Of a DNA stretch of 47,548 nucleotides, positions 6,561-40,396 are shown one piece after another. A model generated the notes under the pieces. It was not told where the DNA came from. It saw nothing but the letters and a program-made list of their open reading frames with translations, and did not search any database. The DNA is from a phage: NCBI GenBank assembly GCA_012145005.1, contig GCA_012145005.1_3029.1; one strand, 5' to 3'. The position numbers and the translations under genes are program-made. Within the stretch, counting starts at the first letter, position 1. Every line of letters starts with the position of its first letter.

Positions 6561-6894
6561 AATTTTGGTTTTATGTATAGGATTAATTTCATTTTCTGCG
6601 TTAGCAGATACATCATATACTGAAATTAGAGAATATGTAAACCGTACTGCAGCGGATTATTGCGGGAAAAATAAAGCATGTCAAGCTGAATTTGCGCAGA
6701 AATTAATATATGCATATAAAGACGGAGAAAGAGATAAATCAAGCAGATACAAAAATGATACATTGTTAAAACGATATGCTAAAAAGTGGAATACCTTAGA
6801 ATGTTCAGTTGCGGAGGAGAAAGATAAAGCCGCTTGTCATTCAATGGTTGACCGTTTGGTAGATTCTTATAATCGAGGATTGAGTACTAGATGA
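6553..6894 (+). CDS. secreted cysteine-containing small protein (possibly vs)
   Basis: signal peptide MTKILVLCIGLISFSALA; position between vs.1-like and tk region. Confidence 0.45.
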   Translation: MTKILVLCIGLISFSALADTSYTEIREYVNRTAADYCGKNKACQAEFAQKLIYAYKDGERDKSSRYKNDTLLKRYAKKWNTLECSVAEEKDKAACHSMVDRLVDSYNRGLSTR

Positions 6895-7358
6895 TTGTAA
6901 AATATATCAAGGGCGATATTGTCGCCCTTTTCGCTGAAGGTAAAAATATTGCGCATGGATGCAATTGTTTTCATACTATGGGTTCAGGCGTAGCGGGTCA
7001 ATTAACCAAAGCTTTCCCTAAAATTTTGGAAGCTGATAAATTACAGACTGAATGGGGTGATGTAACTAAACTCGGTTCTTACTCAGTCTATGAAAAATAC
7101 TTTAGGACTCATAAAGCGTATTGCTTCAACCTTTATACTCAATTTCAACCAGGGCCAAATTTTGAGTATTCCGCTTTAATGAATTGTATGTTAGAATTAA
7201 ATGAGTTTGGTGAAAATAAACTGATTAAACCTACAATCTATATGCCTAGGATTGGTGCAGGCATAGGTAAAGGAAACTGGGATATTATTGAGGGGATTTT
7301 AGATACATATTCCTCTAAATTAGAAATTGTGATTGTTGATTGGGAACCGTTATTATGA
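6891..7358 (+). CDS. macro domain protein (ADP-ribose binding/hydrolase fold)
   Basis: GCNCFHTMGSGVAG and IGAGIGKG glycine-rich macro-domain motifs. Confidence 0.65.
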   Translation: MIVKYIKGDIVALFAEGKNIAHGCNCFHTMGSGVAGQLTKAFPKILEADKLQTEWGDVTKLGSYSVYEKYFRTHKAYCFNLYTQFQPGPNFEYSALMNCMLELNEFGENKLIKPTIYMPRIGAGIGKGNWDIIEGILDTYSSKLEIVIVDWEPLL

Positions 7359-10827: not shown

Positions 10828-11385
10828 GTGAGTGAGTCAAAGAGAATCAATATGAAACGATTAGTATTAGAAGTTAGTCCGCTTTTTGGTGAATTGGCTA
10901 TAGAAAAAGTAAATAATATGTATCGTTTGACGCAAGAAGACGATATGCTATATTTTACGCCCAGTGAAATCATTCGTTTAACCCAAATTGAATATCCTTA
11001 TACTGATAAAATAGTAAGCATCAATGATGAGCACAAAATTCATTTTTATTCTTCATGCCCAGGATTTAATATTAACAGTGAGTCAATGTGTTTATCAGTT
11101 ATCCATTGGGATAGTTTTATAGCTAAGATTAAATATTTTTATTATTCTAATGAAAGAAAACATAGTTTAAAATGGCTCAAAAATTGCAATGCTATTATTA
11201 CTAACGCTTGCAATCAGAATGATGAAACTCTTTTAAATGTATCAAAATGTTATGAAGAGGGAGATGTCTTAACTATTCGCCAAATTGACGATTTTCGATC
11301 ACATATTGTCACATTTACCAAAGACGAAGCTATTGCGCTAAAGACTTATCTTGATTCTGTCATTCCAACTATGATTTCAAAGTGA
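10828..11385 (+). CDS. hypothetical protein, paralog pair member A
   Basis: GTG start 9 nt after AAGGAG; C-terminus KDEAIALKTYLDSVIPTM similar to next gene. Confidence 0.45.
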   Translation: MSESKRINMKRLVLEVSPLFGELAIEKVNNMYRLTQEDDMLYFTPSEIIRLTQIEYPYTDKIVSINDEHKIHFYSSCPGFNINSESMCLSVIHWDSFIAKIKYFYYSNERKHSLKWLKNCNAIITNACNQNDETLLNVSKCYEEGDVLTIRQIDDFRSHIVTFTKDEAIALKTYLDSVIPTMISK

Positions 11386-11391
11386 GGAAAT

Positions 11392-11913
11392 ATGTTTATT
11401 TCAAGTGAAAGTGGTTTAATTCGTGTTGAATTTAAAAATGACATCTTCCTTATTCAAGGAGATGATATTATTAAAATGAGTTATGACGAAATCAAGAAAA
11501 TTTGTCATACTCTTGAAAGTCATGGAAAGGAAAATGCTACTATCGATATAGGTGATTTATGGGTGACGCTTTATGAAGTATCCGAAGGATTTAACATTGA
11601 AGATGAAAACAACATCTTAGCTATTGATAAAAGAAGTGATTTGTTTGATGTGTTAAAAGTTTATGAACAGTCAAACGGTGGAAGAAAAGCCGTATTGATT
11701 TATCAAAAACCGCATTCATGCGGAACTGCTTCAATTATTTCAAATATTGAAGATGAAACTGATACCTATATGTGTGTTTTGAAAGCGGGCGGTGACCGTC
11801 ATCCGGATTTTATTTCTATTCGTCAAAACAATGGAGAAATTTCATTATCAAAATCAGAAGCTGAAGCTATGATTAAGTATTTAACAACCGTTACACCTTC
11901 AATGAAAGGATAA
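11392..11913 (+). CDS. hypothetical protein, paralog pair member B
   Basis: C-terminus KSEAEAMIKYLTTVTPSM parallels previous gene. Confidence 0.45.
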   Translation: MFISSESGLIRVEFKNDIFLIQGDDIIKMSYDEIKKICHTLESHGKENATIDIGDLWVTLYEVSEGFNIEDENNILAIDKRSDLFDVLKVYEQSNGGRKAVLIYQKPHSCGTASIISNIEDETDTYMCVLKAGGDRHPDFISIRQNNGEISLSKSEAEAMIKYLTTVTPSMKG

Positions 11914-11915
11914 TT

Positions 11916-12377
11916 ATGATTATTAATGAAAGCTCTTGGCACTATAAATTATTCAAAATGTTTAATGATGAATGGAAACGACCTAAGACACTATGCGCGT
12001 ATTTTTGGTCTATTGTTATTCCTACATTTTTCGTTTCTTTTTTCGGATGTACTATACTCGCAGGTCTAACTATCATCTGCGCAGAAATCATGCAGAAATG
12101 GCTTATTTTTGGTAGTTTATGGACTCTTATTCCATCAGCATTTATACTTGCCATTTTGCTTGTTTTACTTATTATCGGTTCATTTGTTATTCCTGCACAA
12201 TTGCATGAAAAATATAAAGATTATAAATGGAAAAAGGATTATGCTTTACATGTAGAAAATATTGATAGGGCGTATAAAGGTTTACCTCCTATTCAACCAA
12301 AGAAATCTATTATCGTCGAATTTTTAAAAGCGCGTAAAGCTAAAGTATGTCCTGTTATTGAATATAAGGCTGAATGA
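11916..12377 (+). CDS. two-TM membrane protein
   Basis: two long hydrophobic segments in ORF track protein. Confidence 0.45.
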   Translation: MIINESSWHYKLFKMFNDEWKRPKTLCAYFWSIVIPTFFVSFFGCTILAGLTIICAEIMQKWLIFGSLWTLIPSAFILAILLVLLIIGSFVIPAQLHEKYKDYKWKKDYALHVENIDRAYKGLPPIQPKKSIIVEFLKARKAKVCPVIEYKAE

Positions 12378-13387
12378 TGAAAACAGTAATGAAAAGCTAT
12401 TTTGGCAGTCATCTTTATGGAACTTCTACTCCAGAATCTGATGTAGATTTTAAAGAAATCTTTGTTCCTCCTGCTCGCGATATTCTTATCGGAAATGTTA
12501 AAGAGCATATGAGTAAAAACACTAACAACACATCATCTAAAAACACTAAAGATGATATTGACCATGAACTATACAGTCTTAAGTATTTCTTTAAATTAGC
12601 AGCAGATGGTGAAACTGTAGCATTGGATATGCTTCACACTCCACCTGAGCTAGTGGTTAAATCTGATTTACCTGATGTATGGAAATTTATCCAAGACAAT
12701 CGTTCACGATTTTATACAACTAACATGAAATCCTATTTAGGATATGTCCGTAAGCAAGCTTCTAAATATGGTGTTAAGGGTTCTCGTTTGGCCGCATTGC
12801 GTGATGTATTGAAAGTAGTTAATCAAATCCCCGATCAGTGGGTTGATTATCAAGAAGACGGTTCCATTAAGCAACGTCGCACTAAAGTTGAAGATATTAA
12901 GCATCGTCTTCCAGAGAACGAATTCTGTGAATGGGTATTCCATAATCATGAGAAAACCGGTCCACAAACGTTCTACACTGTGTTGGGTCGTAAATATCAG
13001 ACAACACTTTCTCTTATTGAGCTTAAGCAGTCTTTGAATAAACTTGATGCCGAATACGGTGAACGTGCTCGTAAGGCTGAAGCGAATGAAGGTATTGACT
13101 GGAAAGCATTGAGTCATGCTTGTCGTGGTGGACTCCAACTATTGGAAATTTACAAAACTGGTGACTTAGTCTATCCACTTCAAGATGCTCCGTTTATTCT
13201 CGACGTGAAGCTGGGTAAACATCCATTTAAAACTGTTCAAGAGTTTTTGGAAGATGTGGTCGATCAAGTAGAAGCAGCATCCATTGAAGCTTCTAAGAAC
13301 GGTATGCAGCAAAAAGTAGACATGGGTTTTTGGGATGACTTCCTTGAGAGGGTTTATCTTGAAAACCACCGAAGTTATTATAAATGA
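12374..13387 (+). CDS. Pol-beta-superfamily nucleotidyltransferase-fold protein
   Basis: N-terminal FGSHLYGTSTPESDVDF fits hG[GS]x9-13Dh[DE]h NTase signature; candidate third acidic residue in VALDML. Confidence 0.5.
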   Translation: MMKTVMKSYFGSHLYGTSTPESDVDFKEIFVPPARDILIGNVKEHMSKNTNNTSSKNTKDDIDHELYSLKYFFKLAADGETVALDMLHTPPELVVKSDLPDVWKFIQDNRSRFYTTNMKSYLGYVRKQASKYGVKGSRLAALRDVLKVVNQIPDQWVDYQEDGSIKQRRTKVEDIKHRLPENEFCEWVFHNHEKTGPQTFYTVLGRKYQTTLSLIELKQSLNKLDAEYGERARKAEANEGIDWKALSHACRGGLQLLEIYKTGDLVYPLQDAPFILDVKLGKHPFKTVQEFLEDVVDQVEAASIEASKNGMQQKVDMGFWDDFLERVYLENHRSYYK

Positions 13388-13388
13388 T

Positions 13389-13413
13389 AGGGAGCCTTCG
13401 GGCTCCCTTTTTG
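13389..13413 (+). terminator. UUCG-tetraloop stem-loop with T-tract
   Basis: AGGGAGCC-TTCG-GGCTCCCT then TTTTT. Confidence 0.7.
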
Positions 13414-13435: not shown

Positions 13436-13465
13436 GTTTACTTCTGCCGCAAAGCATATTATAAT
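13436..13465 (+). promoter_or_regulatory. T4-type early promoter
   Basis: GTTTAC, 17 bp, TATAAT. Confidence 0.65.
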
Positions 13466-13511
13466 ATATGTGTAGTTAATTAATTGCTCTTTAAAAATTG
13501 AGGAGAATACA

Positions 13512-13997
13512 ATGCATATTTTAATGCAATGCCTTGGCAACAAAATTAATGATTTTAATCATAAGCGTGTTAATGATTACATTAAAGACAAACTTGAGAT
13601 TAAAGACACACTTTTTAGAGGACTTACAATAGAGGAAGTGCTATCTTATAAGTTTGAAGTTAATAGGAGAATCAAATTTAAAAGAATAACTTCCTTTAGC
13701 AGTGAGTCTCATATAGCTGAAACGTTTGCGGCAGAACGCTATATGACTAATGTTTTAGTAGTATTAAAAAATGCAAACGTTTTCGACTATTCGACTGCTA
13801 TGATTGACATTTTAGAAAATTTAATCGCAATTGAAGAATCTGGTCAAACTGACGATGATAAGCTTAACAAGCTTTATGATAACCTTTGTATGGTAGATTA
13901 TGAAAGAGAGTTTTTACTGCCAATTAATTCTGAGTTAATAGTTAAAAACATATATTTTGATAGCAAAAAGAACATGCATATAGTAGAAATGGAATAA
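13512..13997 (+). CDS. putative mono-ADP-ribosyltransferase (R-S-E class, C3/ModB-like minimal domain)
   Basis: LFRG (Arg36), TSFSS (STS-like, 60-64), YEREFLLPINSELIV (ExE 131-133 in an ARTT-loop-like context) in canonical order and spacing. Confidence 0.5.
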   Translation: MHILMQCLGNKINDFNHKRVNDYIKDKLEIKDTLFRGLTIEEVLSYKFEVNRRIKFKRITSFSSESHIAETFAAERYMTNVLVVLKNANVFDYSTAMIDILENLIAIEESGQTDDDKLNKLYDNLCMVDYEREFLLPINSELIVKNIYFDSKKNMHIVEME

Positions 13998-14005
13998 ATC
14001 GACAC

Positions 14006-14034
14006 AAAGGGGCCCTAGAGGTCCCCTTTTTATT
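14006..14034 (+). terminator. stem-loop with T-tract
   Basis: AAAGGGG...CCCCTTTT followed by TATTT. Confidence 0.6.
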
Positions 14035-14042
14035 TCAAAAAT

Positions 14043-14065
14043 TTTTTCACAAAACGGTTTACAAG
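14043..14065 (+). repeat. 23-nt promoter-cassette segment repeated at 40319-40341
   Basis: TTTTTCACAAAACGGTTTACAAG identical at both sites. Confidence 0.7.
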
Positions 14066-14086
14066 CATAAAGCTTTATGGTACTAT
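14057..14086 (+). promoter_or_regulatory. T4-type early promoter
   Basis: GTTTAC, 17 bp, TACTAT; shares segments with promoters at 15499 and 40333. Confidence 0.65.
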
Positions 14087-14101
14087 ACAACTATCAACTA
14101 C
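14078..14101 (+). repeat. 24-nt promoter-cassette segment repeated at 15520-15543
   Basis: TGGTACTATACAACTATCAACTAC identical at both sites. Confidence 0.7.
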
Positions 14102-14123
14102 TGATACGGATTTGGAGAATAAA

Positions 14124-15092
14124 ATGAAAACTGTAACTATCAATAAGGGTATCTACTTCGGTAAAGAAATCTCTGGAACTTTTGAGCTCTTAGGCGAATG
14201 GTTCCCAGATAATGCTCCGGTAGATGCACAAGGAGATGGTAAAGTTTTTGTTGAAATTGACGGTAAACGTCGCGGTGTTTGGGTTTACAAATCAGATATT
14301 TCATATGATGGTGTAAAAGTTGAAGAAGTTAAAGAATCATATGAAGATATGAAAACCCGCATTAATAAAAGATTTAATGTTATGGGAATGATGACGAATG
14401 GTATTATTAATGGAAATATTCGTTCATTAATTATCTCTGGCGCAGCAGGTATTGGTAAAACGTATTCTTTAGATAAAGCTTTAAATAAAGCAAATGATAT
14501 TGGATACATTGAATATAAAAGCATTAATGGTAAAATCTCTGGTATTGGTCTTTATGAGCAGCTTTGGAATAATCGTGAAGAGAATTCTGTCCTTTTGATT
14601 GATGATGTGGATGTTTTCTCTGATATGGACATTCTTAATCTTCTAAAAGCCGCTCTGGACACTGGAGAGACCCGTAAAGTCTGCTGGAGTACTGCGTCTT
14701 CTTACTTAGAAGAAAAAGGCATTGACCGTGAGTTTGAATTTAAAGGAACGATTGTTTTTATCACAAACGTTGACATTGACCGCGAATTAGACCGTGGTAC
14801 TAAACTTGCTCCACATTTACAAGCATTGGTGTCCCGCTCAGTTTATTTGGATTTGGGTGTTCACACTAATGAAGAAATTATGGTCAGGGTTGAAGATGTT
14901 ATTCTTTCAACCGACATGATGCAAAAGCGCGGTCTTTCTGATGAAGAAACTTATAAAGCATTATCATGGATGAAAGTTAATGTTAATCGTTTACGCAATG
15001 TTTCACTGCGTACTGCTCTTTATCTTGCTGACTTTATTATGACCGACAAAAACGGTTGGGAAGAAATTGCTGAGGTTACTCTTCTAAAATAA
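14124..15092 (+). CDS. AAA+ ATPase-like protein
   Basis: Walker A ISGAAGIGKT, Walker B VLLIDDVD, sensor-1-like IVFITN; about 100-aa N-terminal domain. Confidence 0.55.
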   Translation: MKTVTINKGIYFGKEISGTFELLGEWFPDNAPVDAQGDGKVFVEIDGKRRGVWVYKSDISYDGVKVEEVKESYEDMKTRINKRFNVMGMMTNGIINGNIRSLIISGAAGIGKTYSLDKALNKANDIGYIEYKSINGKISGIGLYEQLWNNREENSVLLIDDVDVFSDMDILNLLKAALDTGETRKVCWSTASSYLEEKGIDREFEFKGTIVFITNVDIDRELDRGTKLAPHLQALVSRSVYLDLGVHTNEEIMVRVEDVILSTDMMQKRGLSDEETYKALSWMKVNVNRLRNVSLRTALYLADFIMTDKNGWEEIAEVTLLK

Positions 15093-15193: not shown

Positions 15194-15496
15194 ATGTTAT
15201 ACTCAAAGGCTCGTGAAATTTACGAAACTAAAATTAAAGAAGCTGTATTTCAATTCGCAACGACAATGCGATGGACAAATGATTGGGAGTATTCAAAAAA
15301 TCATAAGAAGCCCCTGGTGACAAGAAAGGCTCATATGTTAGTGTTAATAGACCGTGAGCAGATTAAAGCCCGAGAAGCCCTCCAGAATCATAAAAAGGCT
15401 GCCTTTGAATGGTTTATGGATAACACTGCTCCTGAGACTAAGAAAGTAGTGAGCGCTTGGTTCAGTGGAAAAAATTGTGAAAGAAGTTTCTTTTAG
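15194..15496 (+). CDS. hypothetical basic protein
   Basis: ORF track trimmed to ATG 15194 after GGAGG. Confidence 0.4.
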   Translation: MLYSKAREIYETKIKEAVFQFATTMRWTNDWEYSKNHKKPLVTRKAHMLVLIDREQIKAREALQNHKKAAFEWFMDNTAPETKKVVSAWFSGKNCERSFF

Positions 15497-15498
15497 TT

Positions 15499-15528
15499 GT
15501 TTACAAGACCGTTCCTCTGTGGTACTAT
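15499..15528 (+). promoter_or_regulatory. T4-type early promoter
   Basis: GTTTAC, 17 bp, TACTAT; 29/30 identical to promoter at 40333-40362. Confidence 0.65.
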
Positions 15529-15556
15529 ACAACTATCAACTACGGAGGAACACAAA

Positions 15557-22786: not shown

Positions 22787-23260
22787 ATGTTATTGACTGG
22801 CAAATTATATAAAGAAGAAAAACAGAAATTTTATGATGCACAAAACGGTAAATGCTTAATTTGCCAACGAGAACTAAATCCTGACGTTCAAGCTAATCAC
22901 CTCGACCATGACCATGAATTAAATGGACCAAAAGCAGGAAAAGTACGTGGATTGCTTTGTAATCTCTGCAATGCCGCAGAAGGTCAAATGAAGCACAAAT
23001 TTAATCGTTCTGGCTTAAAGGGTCAAGGTGTTGATTATCTTGAATGGTTAGAAAATTTACTTACTTATTTAAAATCCGATTACACCCAAAATAATATTCA
23101 CCCTAACTTTGTTGGAGATAAATCAAAGGAATTTTCTCGTTTAGGAAAAGAGGAAATGATGGCTGAGATGCTTCAAAGAGGATTTGAATATAATGAATCT
23201 GACACTAAAACACAATTAATAGCTTCATTTAAGAAGCAGCTTAGAAAGAGTTTAAAATGA
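22787..23260 (+). CDS. 49: endonuclease VII (Holliday junction resolvase)
   Basis: 157 aa; MLLTGKLYKEEKQKFYDAQNGKCLICQRELN matches T4 gp49. Confidence 0.92.
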   Translation: MLLTGKLYKEEKQKFYDAQNGKCLICQRELNPDVQANHLDHDHELNGPKAGKVRGLLCNLCNAAEGQMKHKFNRSGLKGQGVDYLEWLENLLTYLKSDYTQNNIHPNFVGDKSKEFSRLGKEEMMAEMLQRGFEYNESDTKTQLIASFKKQLRKSLK

Positions 23261-25074
23261 CAATTGAAAAAGAAATTGAAGGATTGATTCATAAAACTAA
23301 TAAAGACCTTTTAAACGAGAATGCTAATAAAGATTCTCGTGTTTTTCCAACTCAACGGGACCTTATGGCTGGTATTGTGTCTAAACACATTGCCAAAAAT
23401 ATGGTCCCGTCTTTTATTATGAAAGCGCATGAAAGCGGAATTATCCATTTCCATGATATTGATTATTCCCCTGCTCTTCCATTTACTAATTGCTGTTTAG
23501 TAGATTTAAAAGGAATGCTTGAGAACGGATTTAAGCTTGGTAATGCACAGATTGAAACTCCTAAATCAATTGGAGTTGCTACTGCAATTATGGCACAAAT
23601 TACTGCACAGGTTGCTTCCCATCAATATGGCGGAACGACTTTTGCGAATGTAGATAAAGTACTTTCTCCTTATGTTAAACGCACCTATGCAAAACATATT
23701 GAGGATGCAGAAAAATGGCAAATCGCTGATGCGTTGAATTATGCTCAATCTAAAACAGAAAAAGATGTATACGATGCATTCCAAGCTTATGAATATGAAG
23801 TAAATACTCTCTTTAGTTCAAACGGACAAACGCCTTTTGTAACAATTACATTTGGTACGGGAACTGACTGGACTGAACGAATGATTCAGAAAGCAATTCT
23901 GAAAAATCGTATTAAAGGTCTTGGTCGTGATGGGATAACTCCTATTTTCCCTAAGCTTGTTATGTTCGTTGAAGAAGGTGTTAATCTTTATAAAGACGAT
24001 CCGAACTATGATATTAAACAGCTTGCTCTAGAGTGTGCAAGCAAAAGGATGTATCCTGATATTATTTCAGCTAAGAACAATAAAGCTATCACTGGTTCAT
24101 CTGTTCCTGTTTCTCCAATGGGTTGCCGTAGTTTCTTGAGCGTATGGAAAGATTCGACTGGTAATGAAATTCTTGATGGACGTAATAATCTTGGTGTTGT
24201 AACACTGAATCTTCCTCGCATCGCGTTAGATTCTTATATTGGAACACAGTTCAATGAACAGAAATTTGTTGAATTATTCAATGAACGAATGGATCTGTGT
24301 TTTGAAGCTTTGATGTGTAGAATTAGTTCCTTAAAAGGAGTTAAAGCGACTGTTGCTCCTATTCTTTACCAAGAAGGTGCATTCGGGGTTCGTCTTAAAC
24401 CTGATGACGACATAATTGAGTTATTTAAAAACGGTAGAAGTTCAGTGTCTTTAGGATACATTGGTATTCATGAATTGAATATTCTTGTCGGTCGTGACAT
24501 TGGACAAGAAATTTTAACTAAAATGAATGCTCGTCTTAAACAGTGGGCTGAAAGAACTGGGTTTGCTTTTAGTTTGTATTCGACTCCTGCTGAAAACCTT
24601 TGTTATCGCTTCTGTAAACTTGATACAGAAAAATATGGAAGTGTAAAAGATGTTACCGATAAAGGATGGTACACTAACAGTTTCCATGTTTCAGTAGAAG
24701 AAAATATTACTCCGTTTGAAAAGATTTCTCGTGAAGCGCCATATCATTTCATTGCGACAGGTGGTCACATTTCTTATGTTGAACTTCCTGATATGAAAAA
24801 TAACTTAAAAGGTCTTGAGGCCGTGTGGGATTATGCTGCACAACATTTAGATTATTTTGGTGTTAATATGCCAGTAGATAAATGTTTTACGTGTGGAAGT
24901 ACTCATGAAATGACTCCTACTGAAAACGGATTTGTTTGTTCTATTTGTGGAGAAACTGATCCTAAAAAGATGAATACCATAAGAAGAACATGTGGTTATT
25001 TGGGAAATCCGAACGAGCGCGGATTTAATCTCGGTAAAAATAAAGAAATCATGCATAGGGTTAAACACCAATGA
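23257..25074 (+). CDS. nrdD: anaerobic ribonucleoside-triphosphate reductase
   Basis: 605 aa continuous ORF; C-terminal RRTCGYLGNP glycyl-radical motif; no intron interruption. Confidence 0.93.
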   Translation: MTIEKEIEGLIHKTNKDLLNENANKDSRVFPTQRDLMAGIVSKHIAKNMVPSFIMKAHESGIIHFHDIDYSPALPFTNCCLVDLKGMLENGFKLGNAQIETPKSIGVATAIMAQITAQVASHQYGGTTFANVDKVLSPYVKRTYAKHIEDAEKWQIADALNYAQSKTEKDVYDAFQAYEYEVNTLFSSNGQTPFVTITFGTGTDWTERMIQKAILKNRIKGLGRDGITPIFPKLVMFVEEGVNLYKDDPNYDIKQLALECASKRMYPDIISAKNNKAITGSSVPVSPMGCRSFLSVWKDSTGNEILDGRNNLGVVTLNLPRIALDSYIGTQFNEQKFVELFNERMDLCFEALMCRISSLKGVKATVAPILYQEGAFGVRLKPDDDIIELFKNGRSSVSLGYIGIHELNILVGRDIGQEILTKMNARLKQWAERTGFAFSLYSTPAENLCYRFCKLDTEKYGSVKDVTDKGWYTNSFHVSVEENITPFEKISREAPYHFIATGGHISYVELPDMKNNLKGLEAVWDYAAQHLDYFGVNMPVDKCFTCGSTHEMTPTENGFVCSICGETDPKKMNTIRRTCGYLGNPNERGFNLGKNKEIMHRVKHQ

Positions 25075-40249: not shown

Positions 40250-40332
40250 CATACAAGTAATATAAATCTATACTTAGGAAAAATAGATGATTCTGGACCT
40301 TTGGAATTCATTAAAAAATTTTTCACAAAACG

Positions 40333-40362
40333 GTTTACAAGACTGTTCCTCTGTGGTACTAT
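40333..40362 (+). promoter_or_regulatory. T4-type early promoter
   Basis: GTTTAC, 17 bp, TACTAT. Confidence 0.65.
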
Positions 40363-40396
40363 TACCCTATCAACCAATACAAATTTGGAGAATGAA

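Follow-up and report, generated by a model that had tools for sequence, protein, structure and literature searches.

A third, shortened Mod-family ADP-ribosyltransferase predicted in an exchangeable early cassette of T-even-like phages

Introduction

The three ADP-ribosyltransferases (ARTs) of phage T4, namely Alt, ModA and ModB, are a classic model of host takeover. ModA modifies Arg265 of the RNA polymerase α subunit, and the targets of ModB are ribosomal protein S1, EF-Tu and trigger factor. ModB, through which protein RNAylation recently came to light, also RNAylates S1 and L2. In the R-S-E clade of ARTs, the ExE motif is associated with arginine specificity (PMC2988021, PMC9503650).

The window analysed here is a stretch of 47,548 nucleotides of DNA from a T2-like phage (contig GCA_012145005.1_3029.1), the first 24 kb of which is ~96% identical to Tequatrovirus genomes. 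Between its nrdC.11 and nrdC.10 homologues lies a gene for a 161-aa protein related to ModA and ModB. The identification of this protein as an ADP-ribosylase is already known, since public annotation and a Pfam family cover it. Several GenBank/RefSeq records and UniProt give the exact protein the name "RNA polymerase ADP-ribosylase", "ADP-ribosylase (ModB)", "ModA" or "modB_2"; the first of these labels is a transfer by homology only. Our literature search turned up neither a description nor a test of this paralogue, and no biochemical or expression data for it. As the ADP-ribosylase label is public, what the present analysis contributes is context and not a discovery, namely the status of the gene as a paralogue, the truncation of the N-terminus, the precise empty site in T4, and the transfer of the cassette across genera.

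Sequence motifs and family membership

A preliminary description of this DNA, made from the letters alone, had read the three R-S-E hallmarks in the translated ORF, and they are present exactly in the order and with the numbering it gave. The motifs are L34-F35-R36-G37, T60-S61-F62-S63-S64, and E131-R132-E133, the last continuing as F-L-L-P. The G+C content of the gene is 29.4%, compared with 34.4% for the window. We also considered whether the ORF call is truncated at its 5′ end, and rejected this possibility: the ORF list already takes the earliest start codon that follows a stop, with no in-frame upstream extension possible, the promoter and the Shine-Dalgarno site are immediately upstream, and the homologues in other contexts share the start position.

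In BLASTP comparisons, T4 ModB matched the 161-aa protein with 30% identity (residues 3-139, E 4e-15) and T4 ModA with 28% identity (E 3e-10). A profile search, which the preliminary description had proposed as a check, returned PHROG 832, "RNA polymerase ADP-ribosylase", at 7e-24. The Pfam family PF26816 (Mod_ADP_RT) is precomputed on the homologues of 93% (P0001), 61% and 52% identity. Local Pfam-A, NCBIfam and PADLOC scans and a search of PDB sequences gave no match for the 161-aa protein. The local Pfam copy gave nothing relevant for T4 ModA or ModB either; its negative result is therefore uninformative, and the PF26816 model appears to be missing from that copy. A word-indexed protein search recovered three relatives only, and a profile seeded with ModA and ModB reached more. 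An exhaustive HMMER search added further short proteins of the family, 175-189 aa long. In an approximate NJ tree, which is weak evidence, the clade of the 161-aa protein grouped with other proteins of 157-189 aa, apart from the ModA and ModB clades.

The catalytic motifs align throughout. LFRG pairs with LWRG of ModA and LYRG of ModB, so that R36 is opposite ModB R73, the residue whose exchange for alanine abolishes ModB activity (PMC10468400). S61 aligns with the ModA and ModB serine, and E131-R132-E133 (ERE) with EQE of both enzymes. Only R36, G37, S61, Y77, E131 and E133 were invariant in an alignment of 23 sequences that took in ModA-like, ModB-like and other family members. With five of the six invariant columns falling in the motifs, and with significant full-length homology to ModA and ModB, the pattern is not a product of chance. 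Moreover, R-G, S-F-S and ExE are kept in the metagenome-contig homologues at 61% and 52% identity. When the family profile was compared with PDB sequences, YRG, TSxS (TSFS) and ExE came into register with Vis (TSTS) at a sub-threshold E of 0.11, which serves as illustration only.

ARTs commonly show NADase side activity. It is conceivable, and in our estimate quite unlikely, that the main substrate of the 161-aa protein is non-protein or non-canonical, for example that it is chiefly an NAD+ glycohydrolase or takes NAD-capped RNA as its donor (RNAylation); ModB, the closest characterised relative, does accept NAD-capped RNA (PMC10468400). Nothing in the sequence, however, distinguishes RNAylation or NADase activities, and the comparison of pI and charge with ModA and ModB is uninformative on RNA use (the pI of the 161-aa protein is 5.3, ModB-like).

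Predicted structure

The AlphaFold2 model of the 161-aa protein, built on a 13-sequence alignment, had a mean pLDDT of 90.2 and a pTM of 0.83, with no low-confidence segments. It shows the ART core fold, a split β-sandwich. R36 is located at the end of strand 1 (residues 29-37), and S61-F62-S63 lies on strand 2 (residues 60-63). E131 and E133 are placed where helix 115-131 ends and strand 133-136 begins, a region that corresponds to the ARTT loop and strand 5. The last motif had been likened to the [QE]xE catalytic loop of ART toxins, and its position in the model, together with the invariance of both glutamates, bears this out.

All 50 matches listed by Foldseek against the PDB were R-S-E ARTs with a probability of 1.00; they include C3, Tre1, ExoS, XopAI, VIP2, Vis, SpvB and Certhrax. 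Against BFVD, an ACG-C40 orthologue named "ADP-ribosylase" (TM 0.97) was followed by a ModB-annotated model (TMq 0.87) and a ModA-annotated model (TMq 0.79). Structure prediction, the second check that had been proposed, thus gave a confident ART fold with the three motifs at the canonical positions of the clade rather than on unrelated elements, and the ART interpretation therefore stands. By homology, fold, motif placement and conservation, the 161-aa protein is a predicted ART of the R-S-E clade.

The main departure from ModA and ModB is at the N-terminus. In a ModB-like model (P0005, pLDDT 89.0), strand 1 is preceded by four helices (residues 5-14, 18-31, 34-45 and 50-62), of which only the last two have counterparts in the 161-aa model. 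The first residue of the protein corresponds to residue 38-39 of ModA/ModB, and the protein does not share the four-helix architecture of ~200 aa. The word "minimal", applied to it in the preliminary description, is fair.

A third Mod paralogue

Phage UFV-AREG1 encodes a 100%-identical protein and, in addition, modA and modB_1 at the canonical srd-modA-modB locus. The gene described here does not share that locus, as an ortholog of modA or modB would, and is found between nrdC.11 and nrdC.10. The presence of the identical protein beside modA and modB_1 means that we are dealing with a third Mod paralogue, and not with a displaced ortholog; counting Alt, it is the fourth ART, in agreement with the suggestion that it is additional to the three known transferases.

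A paralogue may nevertheless be redundant, and an active enzyme that provides an extra dose or allele on the same targets as ModB or ModA is a possibility that we take seriously but consider doubtful. ModB is its closest characterised relative, the structural match to the ModB and ModA models is good, and annotators have given ModA and ModB names to the protein. On the other hand, the identity to either enzyme is only 28-30% and two N-terminal helices are missing, for which reasons the substrate is probably unlike that of ModA or ModB. The separate NJ clade with the 157-189-aa proteins points, weakly, in the same direction. Coexistence with modA and modB also suggests a different substrate and, with the gene under purifying selection (see below), argues for a non-redundant role.

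Cassette anatomy

The features of the locus are collected in Table 1. A stem-loop followed by a T4-type early promoter was found on both flanks of the gene, so the proposal that it is bounded on each side by a terminator and an early promoter proved correct. Both promoters fit the PeSL consensus TTTACW-N17-TAYWAT given for the PST/T4 phage pair (PMC4122927).

Table 1. Features of the ART cassette and its neighbours in the window
Feature	Position	Strand	Basis
nrdC.11 homologue (RlaP-type nucleotidyltransferase), left neighbour	12374..13387	+	
Stem-loop terminator after nrdC.11, AGGGAGCC-TTCG-GGCTCCCT and T-run, upstream PeSL half	13389..13408	+	8 pairs, 6 GC
Early promoter of the ART gene, TTTACT-17-TATAAT, T4-type	13437..13465	+	consensus scan
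Shine-Dalgarno GAGGAG, 6 nt before ATG	13500..13505	+	sequence read
CDS, 161 aa, short Mod-family R-S-ExE ADP-ribosyltransferase (predicted)	13512..13997	+	ORF list, homology, model, conservation
Stem-loop terminator of the ART gene, GGGGCC-CTAGA-GGTCCC and T-run, downstream PeSL half	14009..14025	+	consensus scan
Early promoter of nrdC.10, TTTACA-17-TACTAT, downstream PeSL half	14058..14086	+	consensus scan
nrdC.10 homologue (AAA-like protein), right neighbour	14112..15092	+	

The promoter half of the downstream PeSL (14037-14098) recurs elsewhere in the window, at 15479-15540 and 40313-40374, with 66-79% identity. These copies fit a dispersed family of early-promoter cassettes and might act as sites of recombination.

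The empty site in T4 and cassette transfer

The window does not come from T4, in which the spacer between nrdC.11 and nrdC.10 measures only 114 bp. Alignment of the flanks indicated that its single element is a chimera, in which the upstream stem-loop of the window is joined to the downstream promoter. The T4 stem-loop is identical to the one that follows nrdC.11 in the window, and the T4 promoter half matches the window downstream promoter at every aligned position, with short indels nearby only. The terminator stem-loop of the ART gene is absent from this intergenic region of T4. The junction of the chimera falls in an AT-rich stretch between the stem-loop and the promoter. Such a topology is explained by tandem-PeSL recombination with excision or insertion of a mini-circle (Arbiol et al. 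2010, PMC2839356).

Nucleotide identity between the window and Citrobacter phage Moon, a Moonvirus, is 93.8% in the ART gene, 67% in nrdC.11 and 71% in nrdC.10, and the block of high identity sets in with the -35 element of the ART gene's own promoter. The sharp contrast in identity, together with the start of the block at the -35 element, is strong evidence for a recent exchange of the promoter-gene unit across genera. The preliminary description had regarded this organisation as typical of horizontally shuffled accessory genes; the contrast with Moon and the empty site in T4 both support that view. In Moon (L010 913-1376) and in a metagenome contig (L009 2952-3421), nrdC.11 and the ART cassette are separated by two small ORFs of 63-93 aa, which the window lacks and which fall outside the transferred block.

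More distant homologues occur in other contexts. The 61%-identical one is found at a different site, between regA and the DNA polymerase gene 43, and the 52%-identical one is downstream of an nrdC.11 homologue. Both are preceded by a promoter-like sequence and a conserved 5′ leader and are followed by a terminator. The cassette with the 61%-identical homologue (P0002; L007 5001-5546 and L008 2946-3491) belongs to an uncultured T4-like phage. We must note that the 181-aa call for this homologue extends across its own promoter-like sequence and has probably been drawn too long: judged by the conserved leader and by how the other homologues align, the likely true start is Met25, giving 157 aa.

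Distribution and selection

Megablast with the CDS alone identified 44 phage records that carry the gene. They include all T2 isolates, SV76, UFV-AREG1, HY01 and ACG-C40, as well as Salmonella phages and the Citrobacter phages Moon and CF1. T4 is not among the 44 carriers, although it is present in the collection searched. For comparison, at least 80% of the window's first 24 kb is present in 427 records.

This patchy distribution, brought about by horizontal transfer, could be explained by a counter-defence enzyme that ADP-ribosylates and inactivates an immunity or toxin protein of the bacteria that T2-like, Moon-like and Salmonella phages infect. Besides the accessory character of the cassette (44 records vs 427), its recent move across genera and its early promoter agree with such a role, and there is a precedent in the phage ART AcrIF11, which inactivates CRISPR (PMC12421852). 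The 161-aa protein, however, resembles none of the known families of anti-defence ARTs and drew no match in PADLOC, and accessory status is typical of many genes of unrelated function in the T4 hyperplastic regions. We therefore regard a counter-defence enzyme as unlikely.

Between the two main allele groups, window-type and T2-type, dN/dS is 0.13-0.19, and the gene is under purifying selection. Within the group formed by the T2/SV76 (L002), Moon (L010) and ACG-C40 (L011) alleles, nearly all differences are nonsynonymous (Sd 0.5-2.5 vs Nd 7.5-10.5); dN/dS is ~1-3 there, based on ~8-13 changes, which are too few to separate from neutrality or to call positive selection. In phage BW-1 (OR125554.1, 147325-147809), a copy that aligns over 485/486 nt is annotated as two CDSs. 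This copy is apparently frameshifted and inactivated, which implies that the gene is dispensable, as expected of an accessory gene.

The frameshifted BW-1 copy, the neutral pattern of changes in one allele subgroup, and an N-terminus shorter than that of ModA and ModB are the observations that would fit a dead or decaying Mod remnant, either a truncated pseudo-enzyme or a binding decoy. Such a remnant is hard to reconcile with catalytic residues that are invariant down to 52% identity, with a dN/dS of 0.13-0.19 between the main groups, or with a compact model that is confident and lacks low-confidence segments. Moreover, in three divergent contexts the gene has kept its promoter, its Shine-Dalgarno site and its terminator, and the other members of 175-189 aa share short N-termini. 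A remnant is the least probable of the explanations weighed here.

Proposed function

Taken as a whole, the evidence makes it likely that the gene encodes a third, shortened R-S-ExE mono-ADP-ribosyltransferase of the Mod family, expressed early from an accessory PeSL cassette and acting on a substrate that is probably unlike those of ModA and ModB. According to this model, host σ70 RNA polymerase would use the gene's own T4-type early promoter to transcribe it as soon as infection has taken place, and the mRNA, ended by its own terminator, would be translated from a strong Shine-Dalgarno site. NAD+ would most likely bind in the cleft formed by R36 of strand 1, S61-x-S63 of strand 2 and E131-x-E133 of the ARTT loop and strand 5. 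ADP-ribose would then be transferred to arginine residues of one or more host proteins. The promoter-gene-terminator unit as a whole would be gained or lost by recombination between the flanking PeSL elements. The catalytic activity and the early timing are inferred, and a target distinct from those of ModA and ModB is likewise presumed. Arginine specificity is suggested by analogy, from the general ExE rule of R-S-E ARTs and from the behaviour of ModA and ModB.

A bolder version may be put forward, in which the protein is a non-redundant short Mod paralogue that ADP-ribosylates or RNAylates a host protein different from the targets of ModA and ModB, perhaps one that belongs to an immunity or toxin system, and in which the gene is a horizontally traded determinant of host range or counter-defence that separates T2-type phages from T4. 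We hold this version to be rather improbable.

Under the likelier model of a third Mod-family transferase, T2 and ~40 other sequenced T-even-like phages would have a compact enzyme of the Mod type as their fourth transferase, one that is missing from T4. Since the gene is conserved, has its own signals for early expression and was exchanged recently between phage genera, it makes an easy experimental target in the search for new ART substrates. The 161-aa protein is also a natural minimal scaffold of the Mod family, and the cassette cleanly illustrates PeSL-mediated exchange in which the cargo is a recognisable enzyme.

Other features of the window

A second gene connected with ADP-ribose lies ~6 kb upstream of the ART gene, in the same early region. 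The tk.4 homologue (6891-7358, + strand) encodes a protein of 155 aa with a Macro domain (PF01661; its 27.7 bits exceed the gathering score), a fold that serves in ADP-ribose binding or as a hydrolase. As tk.4 is present in T4 too, it is not specifically coupled to the 161-aa ART.

The window differs from T4 at two further positions. Its nrdD (23257-25074, + strand) is a single uninterrupted ORF of 605 aa with NRDD and Gly_radical domains, whereas T4 nrdD is split by a group I intron carrying I-TevII. Directly upstream of nrdC.11, T4 has the homing endonuclease gene mobD. In the window, its place (10828-12377, + strand) is taken by tandem y05I-like paralogues (10828-11385 and 11392-11913) and an ORF of 153 aa (11916-12377), for which there was no Pfam match.

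Comparison with known systems

The organisation of the locus follows that of published PeSL cassettes (Arbiol et al. 2010; Comeau et al. 2014; PMC2839356, PMC4122927), with the same two-sided brackets and a single chimeric PeSL at the empty site. The published cassettes mostly carry ORFans, whereas the one in the window carries a recognisable enzyme.

Among characterised enzymes, T4 ModB (NAD-protein ADP-ribosyltransferase, 207 aa) has the same R-G, S and ExE residues and a similar predicted fold, and it is also encoded by an early gene of a T-even phage. The 161-aa protein is 46 aa shorter, with ~36 residues missing at the N-terminus, where the first two helices of the ModB-like model are located. 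It also forms a tight two-helix hairpin (residues 93-131) in a region that is a low-confidence loop in the ModB model. Its gene, at the nrdC.11/nrdC.10 locus, has its own promoter and terminator, in contrast to T4 modB, which resides in the srd-modA-modB cluster. T4 ModA (RNA polymerase α Arg265 ADP-ribosylase, 200 aa) has the same motifs and belongs to the same family, but it is more distant than ModB. ModA has S-A-S in place of S-F-S, and the differences in N-terminus and locus are as for ModB.

The bacterial R-S-E ART toxins (C3 exoenzymes, VIP2/iota-type toxins, Vis and Tre1) share only 10-19% identity with the 161-aa protein, with no significant match at the sequence level, and the best-matching C3 and Vis toxins have 200-222 aa. 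C3 enzymes carry QxE and are Asn-specific, whereas the 161-aa protein has ExE. Unlike these toxins, it contains a Mod-specific helical hairpin before ExE. Finally, the toxins are secreted, whereas the 161-aa protein is predicted to be a cytoplasmic early protein of the phage.
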